This document shows positions 36,248-42,911 of a stretch of 52,651 bases of DNA, piece after piece. Below the pieces are notes generated by a model. That model saw nothing but the letters and a program-made list of their open reading frames with translations, did no database searches and was not told the DNA's origin. Source of the DNA: a virus (lineage: Duplodnaviria; Caudoviricetes); IMG/VR virus record IMGVR_UViG_3300025508_000025, positions 1-52,651 of that record. The stretch is one strand, 5' to 3'. The translations under genes and the position numbers were made by a program. Position 1 is the first letter of the stretch. Each line of letters begins with the position of its first letter.

Positions 36248-36290
36248 AAAAAAAAAGGCGATAGCCACTAATTAAAGTAGCTACCGCCTT
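36248..36290 (-). terminator. Intrinsic terminator ending the early operon
   Basis: AGGCGGUAGCUACU-loop-AGUGGCUAUCGCCU then U-run, just after the stop at 36298. Confidence 0.75.
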
Positions 36291-36297
36291 ATTTATT

Positions 36298-36627
36298 TTA
36301 TCCCTCCCTTGATTTTCTAATGAAGCCAAGATGCCTATTTACATGGAAACCCCTTCGTTGATACCATGTTCTAAGCTGAACAACATTTAAACCTTTTCTT
36401 CCCAGTCGTTGAATTTGACCAGTGATTTCAAGGTTATGTTTATCTGCCAATTTAACCAACCAATCCAAACCTTTAGAACCTAATCCAGTTCCCATGTTTA
36501 AAGATATGATTGCACTTAGTCTTATGCCTTTGAGAGTAGGATTCAATTCAAAAGTTGCCACGCTATCTAAAACATATAGATGCCCTACTTTAATTGTTTC
36601 CGATTCTAATTCTTCCCAAAAACTCAT
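36298..36627 (-). CDS. GNAT-like acetyltransferase
   Basis: GTGLGSKGLDWL (acetyl-CoA motif A-like), LRTWYQRRGF; likely start MSFWEE. Confidence 0.55.
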   Translation of the reverse strand: MSFWEELESETIKVGHLYVLDSVATFELNPTLKGIRLSAIISLNMGTGLGSKGLDWLVKLADKHNLEITGQIQRLGRKGLNVVQLRTWYQRRGFHVNRHLGFIRKSREG

Positions 36628-36629
36628 GA

Positions 36630-36812
36630 TTAATCTCTGCAAAAGATCAGGACTGATAAACAAAAAGCTGTTCCCAATCCACTATAGAAGATCACAAAGT
36701 AATCTGCCCTAGCTATCCATTCTTGCGAAAGTAATCCCTCTCCCCAAGTAAAACCTAGGAAGAGAAATGCAATAGCACCCATTGATGCAATGATAGTTAA
36801 GAATCTATTCAT
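36630..36812 (-). CDS. Small two-TM membrane protein
   Basis: GGAGG SD; two hydrophobic segments. Confidence 0.55.
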   Translation of the reverse strand: MNRFLTIIASMGAIAFLFLGFTWGEGLLSQEWIARADYFVIFYSGLGTAFCLSVLIFCRD

Positions 36813-36949
36813 GATAATTCCTCCTCATCAATAAAGAATTTGATATGAACAAATCCTCCACTCATAGATGAGATTGAATATCTATAATCGCAAGTTTCCA
36901 ACCATGCAATAAAAGACTTTAGATGCTTCGTCTGAATACTAGCACTCAT
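36809..36949 (-). CDS. Small protein (46 aa, not in ORF track)
   Basis: GAGGT SD, ATGA overlaps; FIAWLETC. Confidence 0.55.
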   Translation of the reverse strand: MSASIQTKHLKSFIAWLETCDYRYSISSMSGGFVHIKFFIDEEELS

Positions 36950-37092
36950 GATTGCACCTCCTCTTCGATGTCAGACAACCATTCATCAAAATCTTGTCTT
37001 AATCCGTCTGGCATATCATTAAGTAATATTTCCATTTTAGGATTGTCATTCCATTGAATTAATATTTGAGTTGCTACTATTGTTCTGCTCAT
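36946..37092 (-). CDS. Small acidic protein (48 aa, not in ORF track)
   Basis: GAGGT SD, ATGA overlaps at both ends. Confidence 0.55.
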   Translation of the reverse strand: MSRTIVATQILIQWNDNPKMEILLNDMPDGLRQDFDEWLSDIEEEVQS

Positions 37093-37451
37093 GATTGCAC
37101 CTCGTGATTCACAGTCAAAGTTATCAGATACTTTTTATCCTGAATATCTTTACATAGATTTATTACATCTAGATTTGTATAAAGACTCTCTCGCATAGCA
37201 AAAGAATCTAAAAACAAATCAGACTCATTCCTAGCAAAATAAATAGCATTGAGTATTAAACTCAATACATCCACCTCACTCATTGATTTATCTTTTGGAA
37301 CACCATTAGGATATTTCAAAAAACATGAGACTAACATCCAATCAGCCTTGCTCATGATATTTGGCAAATCTCCTATAGGAGTTTTACCTTTCATATCAAT
37401 CCCATATTTGCTTCCCATTTCTGAAAAGACTTTATCTCGTTCTTTATTCAT
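37089..37451 (-). CDS. Hypothetical early protein
   Basis: GGAGGT SD. Confidence 0.6.
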   Translation of the reverse strand: MNKERDKVFSEMGSKYGIDMKGKTPIGDLPNIMSKADWMLVSCFLKYPNGVPKDKSMSEVDVLSLILNAIYFARNESDLFLDSFAMRESLYTNLDVINLCKDIQDKKYLITLTVNHEVQS

Positions 37452-37484: not shown

Positions 37485-37540
37485 TTTCTGTTTCGACCTT
37501 TTAGGTCTCATCAGGGAAAAAACACATTTTCCGACAGAAA
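37485..37540 (-). ncRNA. Hammerhead ribozyme HH1 (type III, canonical)
   Basis: UUUCUG-UC^GGAAAA-ugugUU-UUUUCC-CUGAUGA-GACC-uaaaa-GGUC-GAAA-CAGAAA; GUC cut 37533/37532. Confidence 0.93.
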
Positions 37541-37584
37541 TCGCCAAAATAGGCTTCATGTACTCGCACCAGTGAACGAATCGT

Positions 37585-37623
37585 GGGAGGGTCAAGGGTC
37601 TTGCAACCCCTGAAACACCCCCC
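37585..37623 (-). other. GC-rich GNRA-capped hairpin between vWA gene and HH1
   Basis: UCAGGGGUU-GCAA-GACCCUUGA extended by G-run/CCCUCCC; no U-tail. Confidence 0.6.
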
Positions 37624-37637
37624 TCGCATATCGCATC

Positions 37638-39071
37638 CTAGTTATAGAAGTCAGCAGTTTCAACATAGACCACTTCGCCAAAGGCTAGGTTTTCTGAATA
37701 AGTGCTTTTATCTGTGACTGCCCAAAAGACAGGTACATCAGGCTCGACTTCAGGACTCACTTCACCCCAGCCGTCAGTGAAGTAAACAATAGCTTGAACA
37801 TCATCCACATCATCTGAATGATCATTGAACAAGTTAAATGGAGGGTCGAACAATGTTCCACCACCACCCCTCACCTGTAATTCAAGATCATCGCCTTGAT
37901 CTAACTCATAGATATCCCACCACTCGCCTTGTTGATTCTTACGAACAACAGTATCGCAGTAGCACACCCTGATCTTATCAAGACCACAATCCTCAGCCAT
38001 TGCCTGAATCTCAGTAGCGAACATATTCAATTCGTATTGAGAAACAGAACCACTGGTATCAATCATGATAGCTAACTCGCCACCTTGCGGAGACTTTGCT
38101 TTGCTAGGTAAATTAATACCTCGATGTTGATGCCTTTTGTTTAGCCTAGACCAAGTATTCTCTTCAGAGATAGAGGACTGCAAAAGATCATTAAGTTGTT
38201 CTCTCCAATCCACTTGCACTTCTTGATTCGCATCAGCAGAACCAAGACCACCTGAAGAACCAGTGCCACTCATAGCAATCTCTAACTTTTCAGCTAAAGA
38301 AATTGCTCTCTGAATTTCACCTTTAACTTCTTGCATTTCTGCATCAGTCAATGGTTTCCCTTCATCGTTAGTAGCATCCCATACTTCGCCAATTGCAGAG
38401 GGAATCGAATCCCAATCTGTGCCTGTTTCAACACCCTCTCCAGTGCTTTCATCAGATTCAGATTCGCCAATACCAGTATCGGAAATATTTCCTGTACCAG
38501 TCTCAGATAATTCTTCTCCCTCTTCATCAGTTGCTTCGCTTCCACCTTGGCTTTGAGCATCCTCTTCTTCAGAGGACTCTTCACCTTTTGGTTTCTGCTG
38601 ATTAATCTGATCAATCGCTTCTTCCAAGGCTTCTTCATCTTTTACCAAGATTGCATAAACCTTTTCAGCAGTCATGCCCTTGTACTTATGATCTAGTAAA
38701 CCGCCCAAAGGCAATTCAAGTTTTAAATCCCAGTACAAATAAGCATTGATCACATAGTCACAAGCGATATTCCAAATTTTAGGATGTCGCTTTCCTCTTC
38801 TCAAAGGATGTTCATAAACAACATGAAGTGCTTCATGAACAAGTACACCCTGTAATTCAGGCTCACTCAGACCCAAGACAAAAGGCGGAAAGTAATAAAT
38901 TACTTTTCCGTCAGTTGCCATTGTGTCGCATCTAGACTGATCAACTTCCACTAAATTAAGATGTAAGAGCATGGATGCCATGCCCACATTACCTTTCATT
39001 AGTTTTGCTCTCGCCTTAACTATGTAGTCATGAGCCAATTGTGGCTCTTTTACAGTTGCTAAATTAGTCAT
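37638..39071 (-). CDS. Metallopeptidase-vWA protein (DUF2201-like)
   Basis: TMATDG, LVHEALH, WNIACD, MIDAS IDTSGS, GGGGT, YFTDGWG; start MTNLAT with GGAGG SD. Confidence 0.85.
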   Translation of the reverse strand: MTNLATVKEPQLAHDYIVKARAKLMKGNVGMASMLLHLNLVEVDQSRCDTMATDGKVIYYFPPFVLGLSEPELQGVLVHEALHVVYEHPLRRGKRHPKIWNIACDYVINAYLYWDLKLELPLGGLLDHKYKGMTAEKVYAILVKDEEALEEAIDQINQQKPKGEESSEEEDAQSQGGSEATDEEGEELSETGTGNISDTGIGESESDESTGEGVETGTDWDSIPSAIGEVWDATNDEGKPLTDAEMQEVKGEIQRAISLAEKLEIAMSGTGSSGGLGSADANQEVQVDWREQLNDLLQSSISEENTWSRLNKRHQHRGINLPSKAKSPQGGELAIMIDTSGSVSQYELNMFATEIQAMAEDCGLDKIRVCYCDTVVRKNQQGEWWDIYELDQGDDLELQVRGGGGTLFDPPFNLFNDHSDDVDDVQAIVYFTDGWGEVSPEVEPDVPVFWAVTDKSTYSENLAFGEVVYVETADFYN

Positions 39072-40053
39072 GCTTTTTTCCTCCAAAGGCTTTTCCAAGA
39101 AAACCACCTTTAAGAGAATCAGCAGACTCTTCCAACTTCTTAGCTAAGTCTTTTCGCTTCTGTTCAGCTAAAGCATCATCTTCTCTCAGAGAGTCAATGC
39201 CATTGTTGTATCCATTAAACGTAGAAACAACGCTAACCAGTTTTTGATGAGCATCAGCAATATCTTGATCGTTACCTAAAATATCAGCGTTGATATTTGG
39301 TAAAGACCCAGTTAATTTTTCCAGTGCTTTAAAACTGGAAGCATTAAAGAAACCTTTTTGTTTCTGCTTGGGGTCATATTCCCTCAATTTTTTTGCTAAA
39401 TGATCAGTCTGTTCAAGGACAGCATCAACAGTGGTTTTAAGAACATTCTTAATATTATTGTTGATTCTATTCTTGACATCATTTTCTATCTTAGACCTTA
39501 ACTTCTCTGATACATTCAAACGAATGTCAGAGCCATATTGAGGAACAGTAGATATCTCAAATTCAAACTTAAACTTTCGTCTAAGTGAATCGAAGTCAGG
39601 GTAATCACATTCGTTGAATGCTTTACCTAAATTTCTTTTGGCTTGTTCCATTTTTTGTGGATAGCTTTTAAGAAACTCATCTACTTCTTTATCCCAAATC
39701 TGCTTTGCATCATCCACTTGATTCTGCAATGACTCTAACTGTGAGTTAGGGCATAAACGCCACCCACTCACAACCTTGTCATCCATATCAGTAGAATTAT
39801 CTGCCCAAGGCAAAGTCATCGGATAGTAATAATCATTCCTAAACTTATTTAAAATGTGGCGAAAATATTTGTTAATATCTTCTCCATAAATATGCTTAGA
39901 AACACCCAGTAATCTCTCGCTAGATACTTCAGTATCTATCGCTAAATCACGCTTTAACCTTTTATCTGTTCTGATTCCGCTAGGATGCTTCGCAGTCATG
40001 CGAACCAACACAGCATTCTCAGACAGAGTATTAGTCAATTTTTCTTTATCCAT
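39064..40053 (-). CDS. DUF3150-like protein
   Basis: TLPW...GWRL, DYP...LRRKFKF; lies between AAA and vWA genes; start MDKEK. Confidence 0.55.
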   Translation of the reverse strand: MDKEKLTNTLSENAVLVRMTAKHPSGIRTDKRLKRDLAIDTEVSSERLLGVSKHIYGEDINKYFRHILNKFRNDYYYPMTLPWADNSTDMDDKVVSGWRLCPNSQLESLQNQVDDAKQIWDKEVDEFLKSYPQKMEQAKRNLGKAFNECDYPDFDSLRRKFKFEFEISTVPQYGSDIRLNVSEKLRSKIENDVKNRINNNIKNVLKTTVDAVLEQTDHLAKKLREYDPKQKQKGFFNASSFKALEKLTGSLPNINADILGNDQDIADAHQKLVSVVSTFNGYNNGIDSLREDDALAEQKRKDLAKKLEESADSLKGGFLGKAFGGKKHD

Positions 40054-40083
40054 AATAAGAACCTCCATTCTTTATTAGAAAAT

Positions 40084-40138
40084 TGCTGTTTCGATCTTAA
40101 TGATCTCTTCAGGTGAGAAAAAAAATCTCACGACAGCA
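40084..40138 (-). ncRNA. Hammerhead ribozyme HH2 (type III, canonical)
   Basis: UGCUG-UC^GUGAGA-U7-UCUCAC-CUGAAGA-GAUC-auuaa-GAUC-GAAA-CAGCA; GUC cut 40132/40131. Confidence 0.93.
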
Positions 40139-40189
40139 GAGCAGAAAATATATTTAACCAGTAAATATAAATTCTGCCCTTGCTCAGAC

Positions 40190-41239
40190 CTAGACTTCTA
40201 AGTCTTGATTCTTGATCTTGAATTCTCCATATCTTGCAGAATCCACAATATCGCTTCTTGCTCCAACAAGCGATCTCACAAAGAAAATTCCAAACTCAGG
40301 GGTAGGAAATTTCTCAATGTAATCAAGAGCATTAGCAAAGTAGTCATGCAAGTTGCTATCACTAGCTTCTTTTATAACACTCACTAATGCACAGACAGTT
40401 GCATACATCAGACCACCACTATCAACAACCTCGACATCTCCACCCTCACAAATTTCTTGCAAGTTGGGAACATCATTTTTCAGTGATAGGAATGACATAA
40501 ACTCGATACTAGCAGTTTCACCTACATCGCCTTGCACAAGTAATTGCACAATTTCTTTAGGTGGATTGCATTTAAGAGTATCGCTTAACCTCACCCATGA
40601 TCTAGGACTAGGCTGTGGGGTAGTAACCTTGGCATTAAAGTCATGCAACCACTCAGGCTGAAAACTTATGAACCCCAAAATTTCAGGACAAATATCATTC
40701 TTACTTGCCCATGCTAACCAATCATCAGGACTATGCTCAAAATCGACCATAGTGCATCTATCTGATACATGACTAGGAAGTTTATTGCTTCCTGCTCTAT
40801 CAGTTGCTCTATTACCTGCACAGATTGTTCTCCACCCTTTAGGCAAAGAATAGTCTCCTATCCTTCCCTCATACAGCAATTGCCCACATACAGCCTGAAC
40901 AGAATTCGATGCTTGGGCATACTCATCAAAGAATAAAATCCCTTCACCACTTACAGGAAGATTGCCCAAAAAGGCTCTCTTCTGTTCATTCGCATCATTG
41001 ATATAAGGCAAACCACCTAAATCAACAGACTCATATAACGACAGTCTGAAATCAATAAATCCAAACTCATTTTGAGTAGGATTAATTTTATCCACGACTA
41101 CCTTCCTATCCATAGCAATGTCATCGACATATGCTCGAACAATTGCACTTTTTCCAATACCTGTTCCCCCTAAAAGGAATGGAGTATTAGACCCTTTTAA
41201 AACTGCCTTAATCGACAGTAATGCTTGACTTGGTTTCAT
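40190..41239 (-). CDS. MoxR-like AAA+ ATPase
   Basis: Walker A GGTGIGKS, Walker B ILFFDE, CAGNR, PSPRSW; start MKPSQ. Confidence 0.85.
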   Translation of the reverse strand: MKPSQALLSIKAVLKGSNTPFLLGGTGIGKSAIVRAYVDDIAMDRKVVVDKINPTQNEFGFIDFRLSLYESVDLGGLPYINDANEQKRAFLGNLPVSGEGILFFDEYAQASNSVQAVCGQLLYEGRIGDYSLPKGWRTICAGNRATDRAGSNKLPSHVSDRCTMVDFEHSPDDWLAWASKNDICPEILGFISFQPEWLHDFNAKVTTPQPSPRSWVRLSDTLKCNPPKEIVQLLVQGDVGETASIEFMSFLSLKNDVPNLQEICEGGDVEVVDSGGLMYATVCALVSVIKEASDSNLHDYFANALDYIEKFPTPEFGIFFVRSLVGARSDIVDSARYGEFKIKNQDLEV

Positions 41240-41310
41240 ATTAATAACCTCCAAAGTTTTTATGATTCAAGTTAGTTTCAGCTACCAATAAATATTATTT
41301 ACCAGTAACT

Positions 41311-41372
41311 ACCAATACTGGATAACAATTTGCTATCCAGTTTCATAGCATTTCAGCTAATCTTCAGTTGGT
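41311..41372 (-). ncRNA. Hammerhead ribozyme HH3 (type I, U10.1-U11.1 variant)
   Basis: ACCAA-CUGAAGA-UUAGC-ugaaau-GCUAU-GAAA-CUGGAUAGC-aaauu-GUUAUCCAG-UA^UUGGU; cut 41316/41315. Confidence 0.85.
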
Positions 41373-41714
41373 TTAAGTAATGGTGTTAGAGACAAATTCA
41401 TCATTTGGATTTTTCCAACAATCTCTAGACATAAGACCATTTTCTAAAATGTATTCCAAATGCTTAGTGGCATTTTTAATGTTATTAAACATTCTTGCCC
41501 TTGCTCCACTTTCATCACATAGATATTCATTATCTTTTGCTAAAAAATAATAACTTCTATTTTCTCCATACAATTCTTTTATTAATTCATATTCATTCCA
41601 AGAATAAATATGAACATCAATCTCATTATGTGGTTCTACTATTCGCTTGTTATCTCTCCAAACTTTCCACTGTTTAGAGATAACTTTTTTATTAGACCAT
41701 TTAATTTTATCCAT
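41373..41714 (-). CDS. Hypothetical early protein
   Basis: GGAGG SD; flanked by hammerheads. Confidence 0.65.
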   Translation of the reverse strand: MDKIKWSNKKVISKQWKVWRDNKRIVEPHNEIDVHIYSWNEYELIKELYGENRSYYFLAKDNEYLCDESGARARMFNNIKNATKHLEYILENGLMSRDCWKNPNDEFVSNTIT

Positions 41715-41743
41715 AATTTTTGACCCTCCAAGGTCAGTTAATT

Positions 41744-41804
41744 ACCAATAACAGACAGCACTCGCTATCTGTTTTCATAGCATCTCAGCTAATCTTCAGT
41801 TGGC
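41744..41804 (-). ncRNA. Hammerhead ribozyme HH4 (type I, U10.1-U11.1 variant)
   Basis: GCCAA-CUGAAGA-UUAGC-ugagau-GCUAU-GAAA-ACAGAUAGC-gagu-GCUGUCUGU-UA^UUGGU; cut 41749/41748; stem III covaries with HH3. Confidence 0.85.
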
Positions 41805-42059
41805 TTAAAAAGTGTTTTTATCCCATTCAGGATTAACATTTTTTTCATCCCAATCCATATCCAATTGATTCAATAAGAATATTGTTGGCAAATAATCGTC
41901 ATGTTGATTACCCCAATCTTCCTCATAGGTTTCCAATTTTCTTTTGTATATGTCTAATGCTTTCCATAAAATCAGACTTGTATCTTCATTTACAGTTAGC
42001 TGTTTAGTCATAATTACCTTTGGCGTTTTCATACCAATTTGTTTATTTTCTTTTTGCAT
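41805..42059 (-). CDS. Hypothetical early protein (84 aa)
   Basis: Start MQKENK at 42059 with GGAGG SD. Confidence 0.6.
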   Translation of the reverse strand: MQKENKQIGMKTPKVIMTKQLTVNEDTSLILWKALDIYKRKLETYEEDWGNQHDDYLPTIFLLNQLDMDWDEKNVNPEWDKNTF

Positions 42060-42090
42060 AATTTTTGACCCTCCAAGGTCATGTTTAATT

Positions 42091-42176
42091 ACCAAGATTC
42101 CCTCGAAAGGGTCAGGGCATTACTGCTACCTGTTTTAAAATTTCGACTGGATTCTCGCCAGTCATCATCAGTTGGT
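42091..42176 (-). ncRNA. Hammerhead ribozyme HH5 (type I, branched stem III)
   Basis: ACCAA-CUGAUGA-u-GACUGG-cgagaau-CCAGUC-GAAA-UU-[two hairpins]-AA-UC^UUGGU; cut 42096/42095. Confidence 0.75.
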
Positions 42177-42593
42177 TTACCCTGTATTTTTTATAGGGTC
42201 ATCAAGGAAAACATCTCCATGCACAGAACGAATAACATAATTAAGATTTTCGTTTATCGTTATTTGTCTATCGTTAATGAATAAGATTTGATTTCCCTTG
42301 ATCTGTTTAAGATAAACAGAATCAGATGCAAAAACATAGGAAAAAATAGCGTTTAATCTCTCCCTTGTTGTGACTGTATCCCACCCACACATTGAAAAAC
42401 ATAAGTGAATATTGTTACTTAAATTTTCGCTAGGATGATTGTTCTCGAACCATGCAATTTTATTGTCATGCAAGAAAACCCCTTGCTGTTTTTTGCTCGA
42501 CCATTCTGATATTGGTCGAATTCTAGTATTGCCCATTATTTTATTTACATTTTCAGTAAATGCTTCAGCAATTTCTTTTGATACTTTTCTCAT
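42177..42593 (-). CDS. Hypothetical protein, first gene of early operon
   Basis: GGAGGT SD; LHDNKIA, GWDTVTTRERLNA motif. Confidence 0.65.
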   Translation of the reverse strand: MRKVSKEIAEAFTENVNKIMGNTRIRPISEWSSKKQQGVFLHDNKIAWFENNHPSENLSNNIHLCFSMCGWDTVTTRERLNAIFSYVFASDSVYLKQIKGNQILFINDRQITINENLNYVIRSVHGDVFLDDPIKNTG

Positions 42594-42613
42594 AAGTTAA
42601 ACCTCCAAGGTTT

Positions 42614-42665
42614 TGTTTCTTGAACCCCAAAATAGGATTCTCTTCAGCCTGTTAATTCAGGGACA
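42614..42665 (-). ncRNA. Hammerhead ribozyme HH6 (type III, variant)
   Basis: UG-UC^CCUG-aauuaa-CAGG-CUGAAGA-GAAUCCUA-uuu-UGGGGUUC-aa-GAAA-CA; AA insertion before GAAA; cut 42662/42661. Confidence 0.6.
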
Positions 42666-42911
42666 GTTGGAGGACTGCCTAGGACATACTGCAGTAGCAA
42701 GTATCGGTGTATCGTGAACGCCTAAGTAGTTTCCATTTCACTACATCTCAGGGAACGCTTTTTGTTTTGATGCTTCTCTTTATCATCGAGGGTAAATCTA
42801 GAGACCCTCAGCTAAGTTAGTATCTTAATAAGTAATACAGCTACCTAGCAGTCATATATGGCTGTTCTATAAAGACCTCCTTTTTGGTTTAATATTCGTT
42901 GTCATGTGCAT

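Follow-up and report, generated by a model that had tools for sequence, protein, structure and literature searches.

Can a phage transcript be divided into separate messages by ribozymes of its own? The question is raised by IMG/VR virus record IMGVR_UViG_3300025508_000025, a linear record of 52,651 bases, estimated to be about 89% complete and analyzed here at its full length (the window). Its plus strand carries the structural genes, and minus-strand genes form a block between about 42.7 kilobases (kb) and 26.7 kb. A preliminary description, made from the sequence alone, had reported six hammerhead ribozyme folds with intact stems at the upstream end of this block, one in the leader and one in each of five large intergenic gaps, and had proposed that they process the polycistronic RNA. 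Our analysis recovers five of the six as canonical hammerheads, which most likely cut themselves co-transcriptionally and so divide the operon into separate messages. The sixth, in the leader, is a non-canonical variant.

Five canonical hammerheads lie between the genes of a minus-strand operon

Both strands of the window were scanned with a strict descriptor requiring CUGANGA, a stem II hairpin allowing no more than one additional base per side, GAAA, an A15.1-U16.1 pair and a base other than G at H17, with stem minima of 4/3/3 pairs. The descriptor matched exactly five times across the whole window, always on the minus strand, on which all features given below lie, and always between genes. 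In 200 dinucleotide shuffles, the mean was 0.265 matches per window and the maximum three, with at least one match in 43 of the 200.

Following the direction of transcription, the first three elements are type I hammerheads. The copy at 42176-42091 has a GUC triplet with a predicted cut after C42096; it begins immediately 3' of a stop codon and carries a branched stem III and an extra U between A9 and G10.1. An extra nucleotide after A9 is known in a viroid hammerhead. The copies at 41804-41744 (cut predicted after A41749) and 41372-41311 (cut predicted after A41316) both use GUA, have a U10.1-U11.1 mismatch and share a nearly identical 5' half. The remaining two elements, at 40138-40084 (cut predicted after C40132) and 37540-37485 (cut predicted after C37533), are type III hammerheads with a canonical core and a GUC triplet.

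The core C3 U4 G5 A6 N7 G8 A9 ... G12 A13 A14 is present in all five, by both descriptor and sequence, together with the A15.1-U16.1 pair and a non-G H17. The G10.1-C11.1 pair closes stem II in three of the five, with U-U in its place in the copies at 41744 and 41311. Folded alone, each element adopts the three-way hammerhead junction as its minimum-free-energy structure, and the three helices are backed by compensatory changes in relatives (whose sequences were chosen by a pairing descriptor).

These results bear out the reported minus-strand folds at 42091, 41744, 41311, 40084 and 37485; the leader fold proved non-canonical and fails the descriptor. The reported spacing also stands. Each of the five large gaps holds one element, and there is none at overlapping or abutting junctions (genes 5 and 6 overlap; genes 7-11 abut). 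The predicted cut positions of the canonical five reproduce the unit sizes of 347, 433, 1184 and 2599 nucleotides (nt).

Stems covary and placement is conserved in related contigs

The same elements, with different stem sequences, occur in 13 viral contigs whose ATPase is 89-100% identical to that encoded between the third and fourth hammerheads of the window. In an alignment of 37 distinct type III sequences, 95.8% of cells are paired, a figure inflated for the innermost pairs by descriptor or model picking, which demands pairing. Changes on both sides were found in 14 of 15 pairs, and none of 500 shuffles scored as high, a control that overstates significance as the aligned sequences are related to one another. 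Among 24 type I sequences, 100% of cells are paired, subject to the same inflation, and 16 of 18 pairs changed on both sides. Many aligned helices are far longer than the descriptor minimum. The claim that stems differ in sequence yet keep their pairing is supported by these alignments, and the cores, whose conservation in relatives had been named as a test, are invariant, with free variation at N7 only.

A loose DNA pattern run over viral contigs returned 119 stretches, 84 of them without a valid hammerhead and mostly due to chance. Because this pattern fixed stem I, the type I stem I from that set is unusable as independent evidence of covariation.

An unbiased sample was assembled from 80 contigs chosen by ATPase homology only (61-100% identity; 582 kb). 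Here the descriptor gave 240 matches on the ATPase strand and none on the opposite one, with at least one match in 79 of the 80 contigs; a type III model derived from relatives (R1) placed all of its 179 matches on the ATPase strand. In 61 of 80 contigs, the 260 nt upstream of the ATPase gene include a hammerhead; the 260 nt downstream do so, by the descriptor, in 49 of 75. Of the 26 downstream misses, 16 were rescued by an R1 match just 3' of the gene. Nine of the last ten (L191, L193, L195, L197, L199, L201, L203, L206 and L207) have, at the stop codon just 3' of the ATPase gene, the core of a type I hammerhead, with the closing strand about 190-350 nt further downstream; the last, L210, has a short gap only. 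In the nine long-insert contigs, the closing strand comprises the stem III 3' strand, H17 and the stem I 3' strand, and conserved hairpins lie inside the stem III insert.

The order hammerhead, ATPase, hammerhead, DUF3150-like gene, (in some, a hammerhead), von Willebrand factor A (VWA) gene, hammerhead is kept down to 28-36% ATPase identity. Synteny in related phage contigs, proposed earlier as a check, is thus conserved around this module. In several contigs (L009/L141, L010/L142, L012, L013/L144, L180 and L204), an extra type III copy lies about 300 nt after the post-VWA one, and this extra copy flanks a small gene that is absent from the window.

The group scores below Rfam thresholds

At gathering thresholds, Rfam returned no match anywhere in the window. 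The closest approach was RF00008 at 37485-37540, with 47.5 bits against a gathering score of 48.5; RF00163 gave a 16-bit partial match in the record at the same place. None of the remaining sites appeared at E<=10, even when short stretches were searched. The Rfam hammerhead search suggested in the preliminary description therefore came out negative, with none of the six elements reaching a curated threshold. The same held for 18 of the 80 related contigs (139.6 kb, with many descriptor matches), in which Rfam at gathering thresholds reported nothing.

Models built from relatives recognize the elements. R1 scored the type III copies at 37485 and 40084 with 67.1 and 58.4 bits, and the corresponding type I model gave scores of 80.4 and 77.9 bits for the pair of copies at 41744 and 41311, all four being members of the respective training sets. 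The type I model also found the remaining type I copy (42186-42081; 32.6 bits, E 1.8e-5), which was absent from its training set. All other model matches in the window were at or below 16.5 bits and were treated as chance. One of 16.5 bits, at 38456-38544 inside the VWA gene (type I model, E 0.2), combines CAACUGAUGA and UAUUGG with broken stems and is probably fortuitous.

The window copies share the core, the three helices and the cut position with the Rfam families RF00008 and RF00163 (clan CL00010). They differ in scoring under the gathering cut-offs and in having group-specific loops: the type III copies carry AUGUGUA in stem I and AAAA or GAAA in stem II, and the type I copies carry UGARAU in stem II.

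The leader element is a conserved hammerhead variant

The sixth element lies in the leader of gene 1, at 42602-42679, and is identified by its sequence and its homology to type III copies in relatives. It has CUGAAGA (42647-42641), GAAA (42619-42616) and a GUC triplet with a putative cut after C42662. Stem I (42661-42648; 4 base pairs) and stem II (42640-42622; a continuous 7 base pairs) are both intact. Relative to the canonical form, an AA (42621-42620) is inserted between C11.1 and G12, and stem III, which extends to 42614, has just 3 base pairs. The Shine-Dalgarno sequence UUGGAGG follows at 42608-42602. A hairpin that we call P0 is formed by GGCAGU (42679-42674), a CCUCCA loop (42673-42668) and ACUGUC (42667-42662). 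Neither the descriptor nor R1 at E<=10 with filters off matched this element.

Relatives have canonical type III hammerheads at the corresponding position, with which the leader element can be aligned; it departs from them in its uninterrupted 7-base-pair stem II, the AA and the short stem III. A decayed, one-off copy was considered and dropped after 34 distinct sequences of the same form turned up across all loci, of which 31 were aligned. Invariant in these 31 are the GU of the cut triplet, the stem I loop GAAUUAAC, CUGA-GA-G, CAAGA and the AA before G12; AAC after CAAGA is conserved in at least 90%, and N7 varies. Stems I and II covary, as does the 16.3/15.3 pair (17 A-U, 12 U-A, 1 unpaired), the one covarying pair in the 3-base-pair stem III.

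The competing P0 hairpin covaries too. It has 5-7 base pairs, occupies the cut-site strand in 24 of the 31 variants with at least seven different stem sequences, and has a loop of six to eight bases that contains CUCC, mostly as CCUCCA. Of the 31 variants, 25 have their ribosome-binding site paired to the upstream strand when folded as a hammerhead. For the window sequence, the P0 fold has a predicted energy of -22.3 kcal/mol and the hammerhead fold (stem III plus CCUCCAA:UUGGAGG) -20.6 kcal/mol, a gap of 1.7-2.1 kcal/mol depending on the stretch folded. The mean gap was 1.4 kcal/mol over the 25 sequences in which a script found P0 (one of these hairpins having just 3 base pairs). Judged by these alignments and folds, the leader element belongs to a conserved and apparently bistable variant subclass.

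It is quite plausible, if somewhat short of an even chance, that this element is an inactive type III relic, now a mere hairpin that masks or mimics the ribosome-binding site. The AA insertion beside G12, the 3-base-pair stem III, the pairing of the cut site within P0 and the failure of both the descriptor and R1 to find the element all point this way. The pattern of conservation argues against it: invariant GU, CUGA-GA, CAAGA and stem I loop, near-invariant AAC, a freely varying N7 and covariation at 16.3/15.3 would be unneeded by a mere hairpin.

More tentatively, and with a rather low likelihood, the leader may be a natural, self-resetting hammerhead switch that controls translation of gene 1. 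In the hammerhead fold, CCUCCAA (42673-42667) would pair with the ribosome-binding site UUGGAGG (42608-42602), lengthening stem III of the junction. Cutting after C42662 would release the masking strand, which would snap into P0 (42679-42662) and expose the gene 1 ribosome-binding site. Were P0 to form first, it would block cutting. A similar principle has been used in synthetic hammerhead switches with the Shine-Dalgarno sequence in a stem (PMC7445771), in which the ribosome-binding site is likewise paired with a strand detachable by cutting. An aptamer drives those engineered devices, and the stem involved is stem I of a type I hammerhead; the leader arrangement is natural and would use stem III and a competing hairpin. 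Full-text literature, covered for PMC3088659 by passages of its main text, yielded neither a case of AA inserted ahead of G12 nor a natural hammerhead whose stem III contains a Shine-Dalgarno sequence, engineered switches being the only examples.

Predicted cleavage would yield messages with structured 3' ends

The operon extends from about 42.7 kb to a terminator-like hairpin at 36.26 kb and holds the five canonical hammerheads and the variant. Each canonical hammerhead would fold and cut during transcription, leaving a 2',3'-cyclic phosphate and a 5'-OH. The resulting messages would be one each for genes 1, 2 and 3 and for the ATPase, one for the DUF3150-like and VWA pair, and one for the terminal block.

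The anatomy of the boundaries differs between the two types. Type I copies start right at the stop codon (UAA or UGA, then RCCAA CUGA), and after cutting they would stay on the upstream message as its 3' end. The 50 nt upstream of these copies have a mean folding energy of -7.72 kcal/mol, no different from random windows. Type III ribozymes would stay on the downstream message, and a separate hairpin precedes each: the 50 nt upstream of type III copies average -11.75 kcal/mol (n=71 distinct), against -7.7 kcal/mol for random windows from the same loci (n=480; p 5.6e-11). In the window, an AU-rich hairpin (40139-40179; -16.5 kcal/mol) lies directly 5' of the type III copy and would form the 3' end of the ATPase message. 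The spacer between the VWA gene stop codon and the last hammerhead (37541-37637) contains a hairpin rich in GC, with -35.7 kcal/mol over 100 nt and z -1.8, for which Rfam gave no match. With structure at both type I and type III boundaries, each predicted message would therefore end in structure, as we infer from this anatomy.

Evidence for and against self-processing

The motifs, the folds, the covariation, the strand bias and the conserved placement around the MoxR-like ATPase/DUF3150-like/VWA module are all observed. From them we infer cleavage in vivo, which may in turn affect message stability, as the preliminary description expected of the 5'-OH ends, or protein ratio. Anatomy, conservation and the published in vitro cleavage of similar arrays fit the proposal of a self-processing set on the sense strand for the canonical five; the leader element is a non-canonical variant that may or may not cut.

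Several observations weigh against self-processing. None of the six elements attains an Rfam curated threshold, and, as noted above, the picking of sequences by pairing and their relatedness flatter the covariation statistics. The U10.1-U11.1 mismatch in two copies and the extra U after A9 in a third may mean slower cutting. A sigma-70-like site was searched for on the minus strand from the leader to 43100 and none was found, and the "early" timing that the preliminary description assigned to the operon is putative, like its promoter. The RNA data, finally, do not support cleavage. These data consist of contigs from four RNA-library runs (of six found) and represent relatives 88-99% identical to the window; they carry no RNA ends or strands, and they gave no site at which many molecules start or stop. 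The predicted cut at 40132 is bridged by contigs in three runs (X15 record 6, X16 record 13 and X17 record 19) and the cut at 37533 by a contig in one (X17 record 16). Bridging contigs could represent uncleaved RNA, antisense RNA or DNA carry-over, which contigs cannot tell apart. The region 41382-41743 had no contig cover in any run, which proves nothing.

A distinctly unlikely alternative is that the hammerheads are conditional or slow elements, with most transcripts remaining polycistronic and cutting confined to certain conditions. The contigs spanning two cut sites would fit such behavior, although they may be DNA, as would the U-U at 10.1/11.1 in two copies, the inserted U in one and the two nearly isoenergetic folds of the leader, just one of which is a hammerhead. 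Regulated cleavage was also raised for phage hammerheads by Perreault et al. (PMC3088659). An invariant core with a free N7 is, however, the pattern of a working catalytic core, and the triple arrays described in the same paper cut efficiently during transcription.

The contigs of three runs also fuse one hammerhead copy to another (41352 to 41785, 41344 to 42165 and 41305 to 42086), skipping 432-908 nt; the 41344-42165 join has 17 other letters that form a different stem II. From these copy-to-copy joins, it follows that relatives differ by whole hammerhead-bounded cassettes. That the copies are chiefly repeated boundaries for cassette gain and loss by recombination, with RNA cutting secondary, is nevertheless very improbable: the joins, the varying number of small genes between type I copies among relatives and the nearly identical 5' halves of copies 41804 and 41372 speak for it, but recombination requires none of the catalytic core, the compensated stems and the strand bias, and the sequences of type III copies that occupy fixed positions are widely divergent.

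Self-cleavage of the canonical five remains the most likely reading. More tentatively, the fixed placement around the MoxR-like ATPase/DUF3150-like/VWA module hints at a need for separate messages in setting the ratio of these proteins.

Genes of the operon and affiliation of the phage

Gene 1 (42177-42593; 138 residues) encodes a Kyanoviridae Gp96-like protein (PF23790, phrog_554). Gene 2 (41805-42059; 84 residues) and gene 3 (41373-41714; 113 residues) had no family match. Genes 2 and 3 each have their ribosome-binding site within a hairpin loop; the small hairpin, UGACC UUGGAG GGUCA (42081-42066 and 41734-41719), is found shortly 3' of the type I cut site and recurs in relatives. Gene 4 (40190-41239) encodes the MoxR-like AAA ATPase (phrog_1297), with ATG at 41239 as its likely start. 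Gene 5 (39064-40053) is DUF3150-like by a weak match under the Pfam cut-off, and overlaps gene 6 by 8 nt (39071-39064). Gene 6 (37638-39071; phrog_1314) combines a DUF2201_N metallopeptidase with a VWA-like domain. The terminal unit (36255-37451) comprises genes 7-11, which are small and abut or overlap, and ends in the terminator-like hairpin at 36290-36255; a second such hairpin follows at 35838-35811.

The large terminase is 51-59% identical (tblastn) to those of the Pelagibacter phages HTVC027P and HTVC023P (51-55% for this pair) and of two uncultured phages. The HTVC027P genome has zero descriptor matches, and we did not find a cultured relative with an array. Among 50,697 named phage records, blastn gave no match to the region. 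A fraction of 0.89-0.97 of the region's sampled words is present in 14 DNA runs labeled as freshwater or aquatic metagenome.

Relation to known systems

Division of a polycistronic phage transcript between genes is familiar from phage T7, whose early mRNA is cut by host RNase III into stable units. There, the cutting agent is a host protein enzyme that acts on hairpins, and the new ends bear a 5'-phosphate; in the present operon, self-cutting of the RNA would give 5'-OH ends.

The preliminary description knew of no operon organized by hammerheads in this way, and this does not hold. Perreault et al. (PLoS Comput Biol, 2011; PMC3088659) described clusters of hammerheads in prophages, placed on either side of one gene or of a short run of genes, and proposed that they act in processing. 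Three triple arrays gave the expected products during in vitro transcription, one of them also in vivo in E. coli. The U10.1-U11.1 mismatch was the best tolerated and supports activity. A 2019 review (PMC6765202) repeats the array-processing idea and calls the function unresolved, and cyPhyRNA-seq in Desulfovibrio vulgaris has verified three hammerheads that neighbor phage-like genes (PMC8782182).

The window shows what defines the clusters of 2011, several same-strand hammerheads flanking genes within one phage transcription unit, and resembles those arrays further in its mixture of types and in including U10.1-U11.1 variants. It differs in its size, with five canonical hammerheads and one variant in 5.2 kb where the arrays tested in that work had three ribozymes, in belonging to an uncultured aquatic phage where those lie in prophages of cultured bacteria, and in the conserved positions of its copies around the MoxR-like ATPase/DUF3150-like/VWA module. 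In the full-text literature, within the scope given above, no link between hammerheads and this module was found.

Implications

The array at this locus is genuine and well conserved, with five canonical hammerheads and one conserved variant. The processing proposed for it is the accepted hypothesis for such arrays, and the claim of novelty fails. As a ribozyme-punctuated operon it adds little to an arrangement in print since 2011; what is specific to it is the fixed placement around one module in a large aquatic phage group, the structured 3' ends, the failure of Rfam to detect it and the bistable leader variant. As Rfam thresholds miss the whole group, such arrays stay unannotated. For the still open question of what bacterial and phage hammerheads do, the group is a well-defined test case, with fixed ribozyme positions and clear predictions of product size. 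An active leader element would show that the hammerhead core tolerates more than is now known, and would give the engineered ribozyme switches that mask a ribosome-binding site a counterpart in nature.

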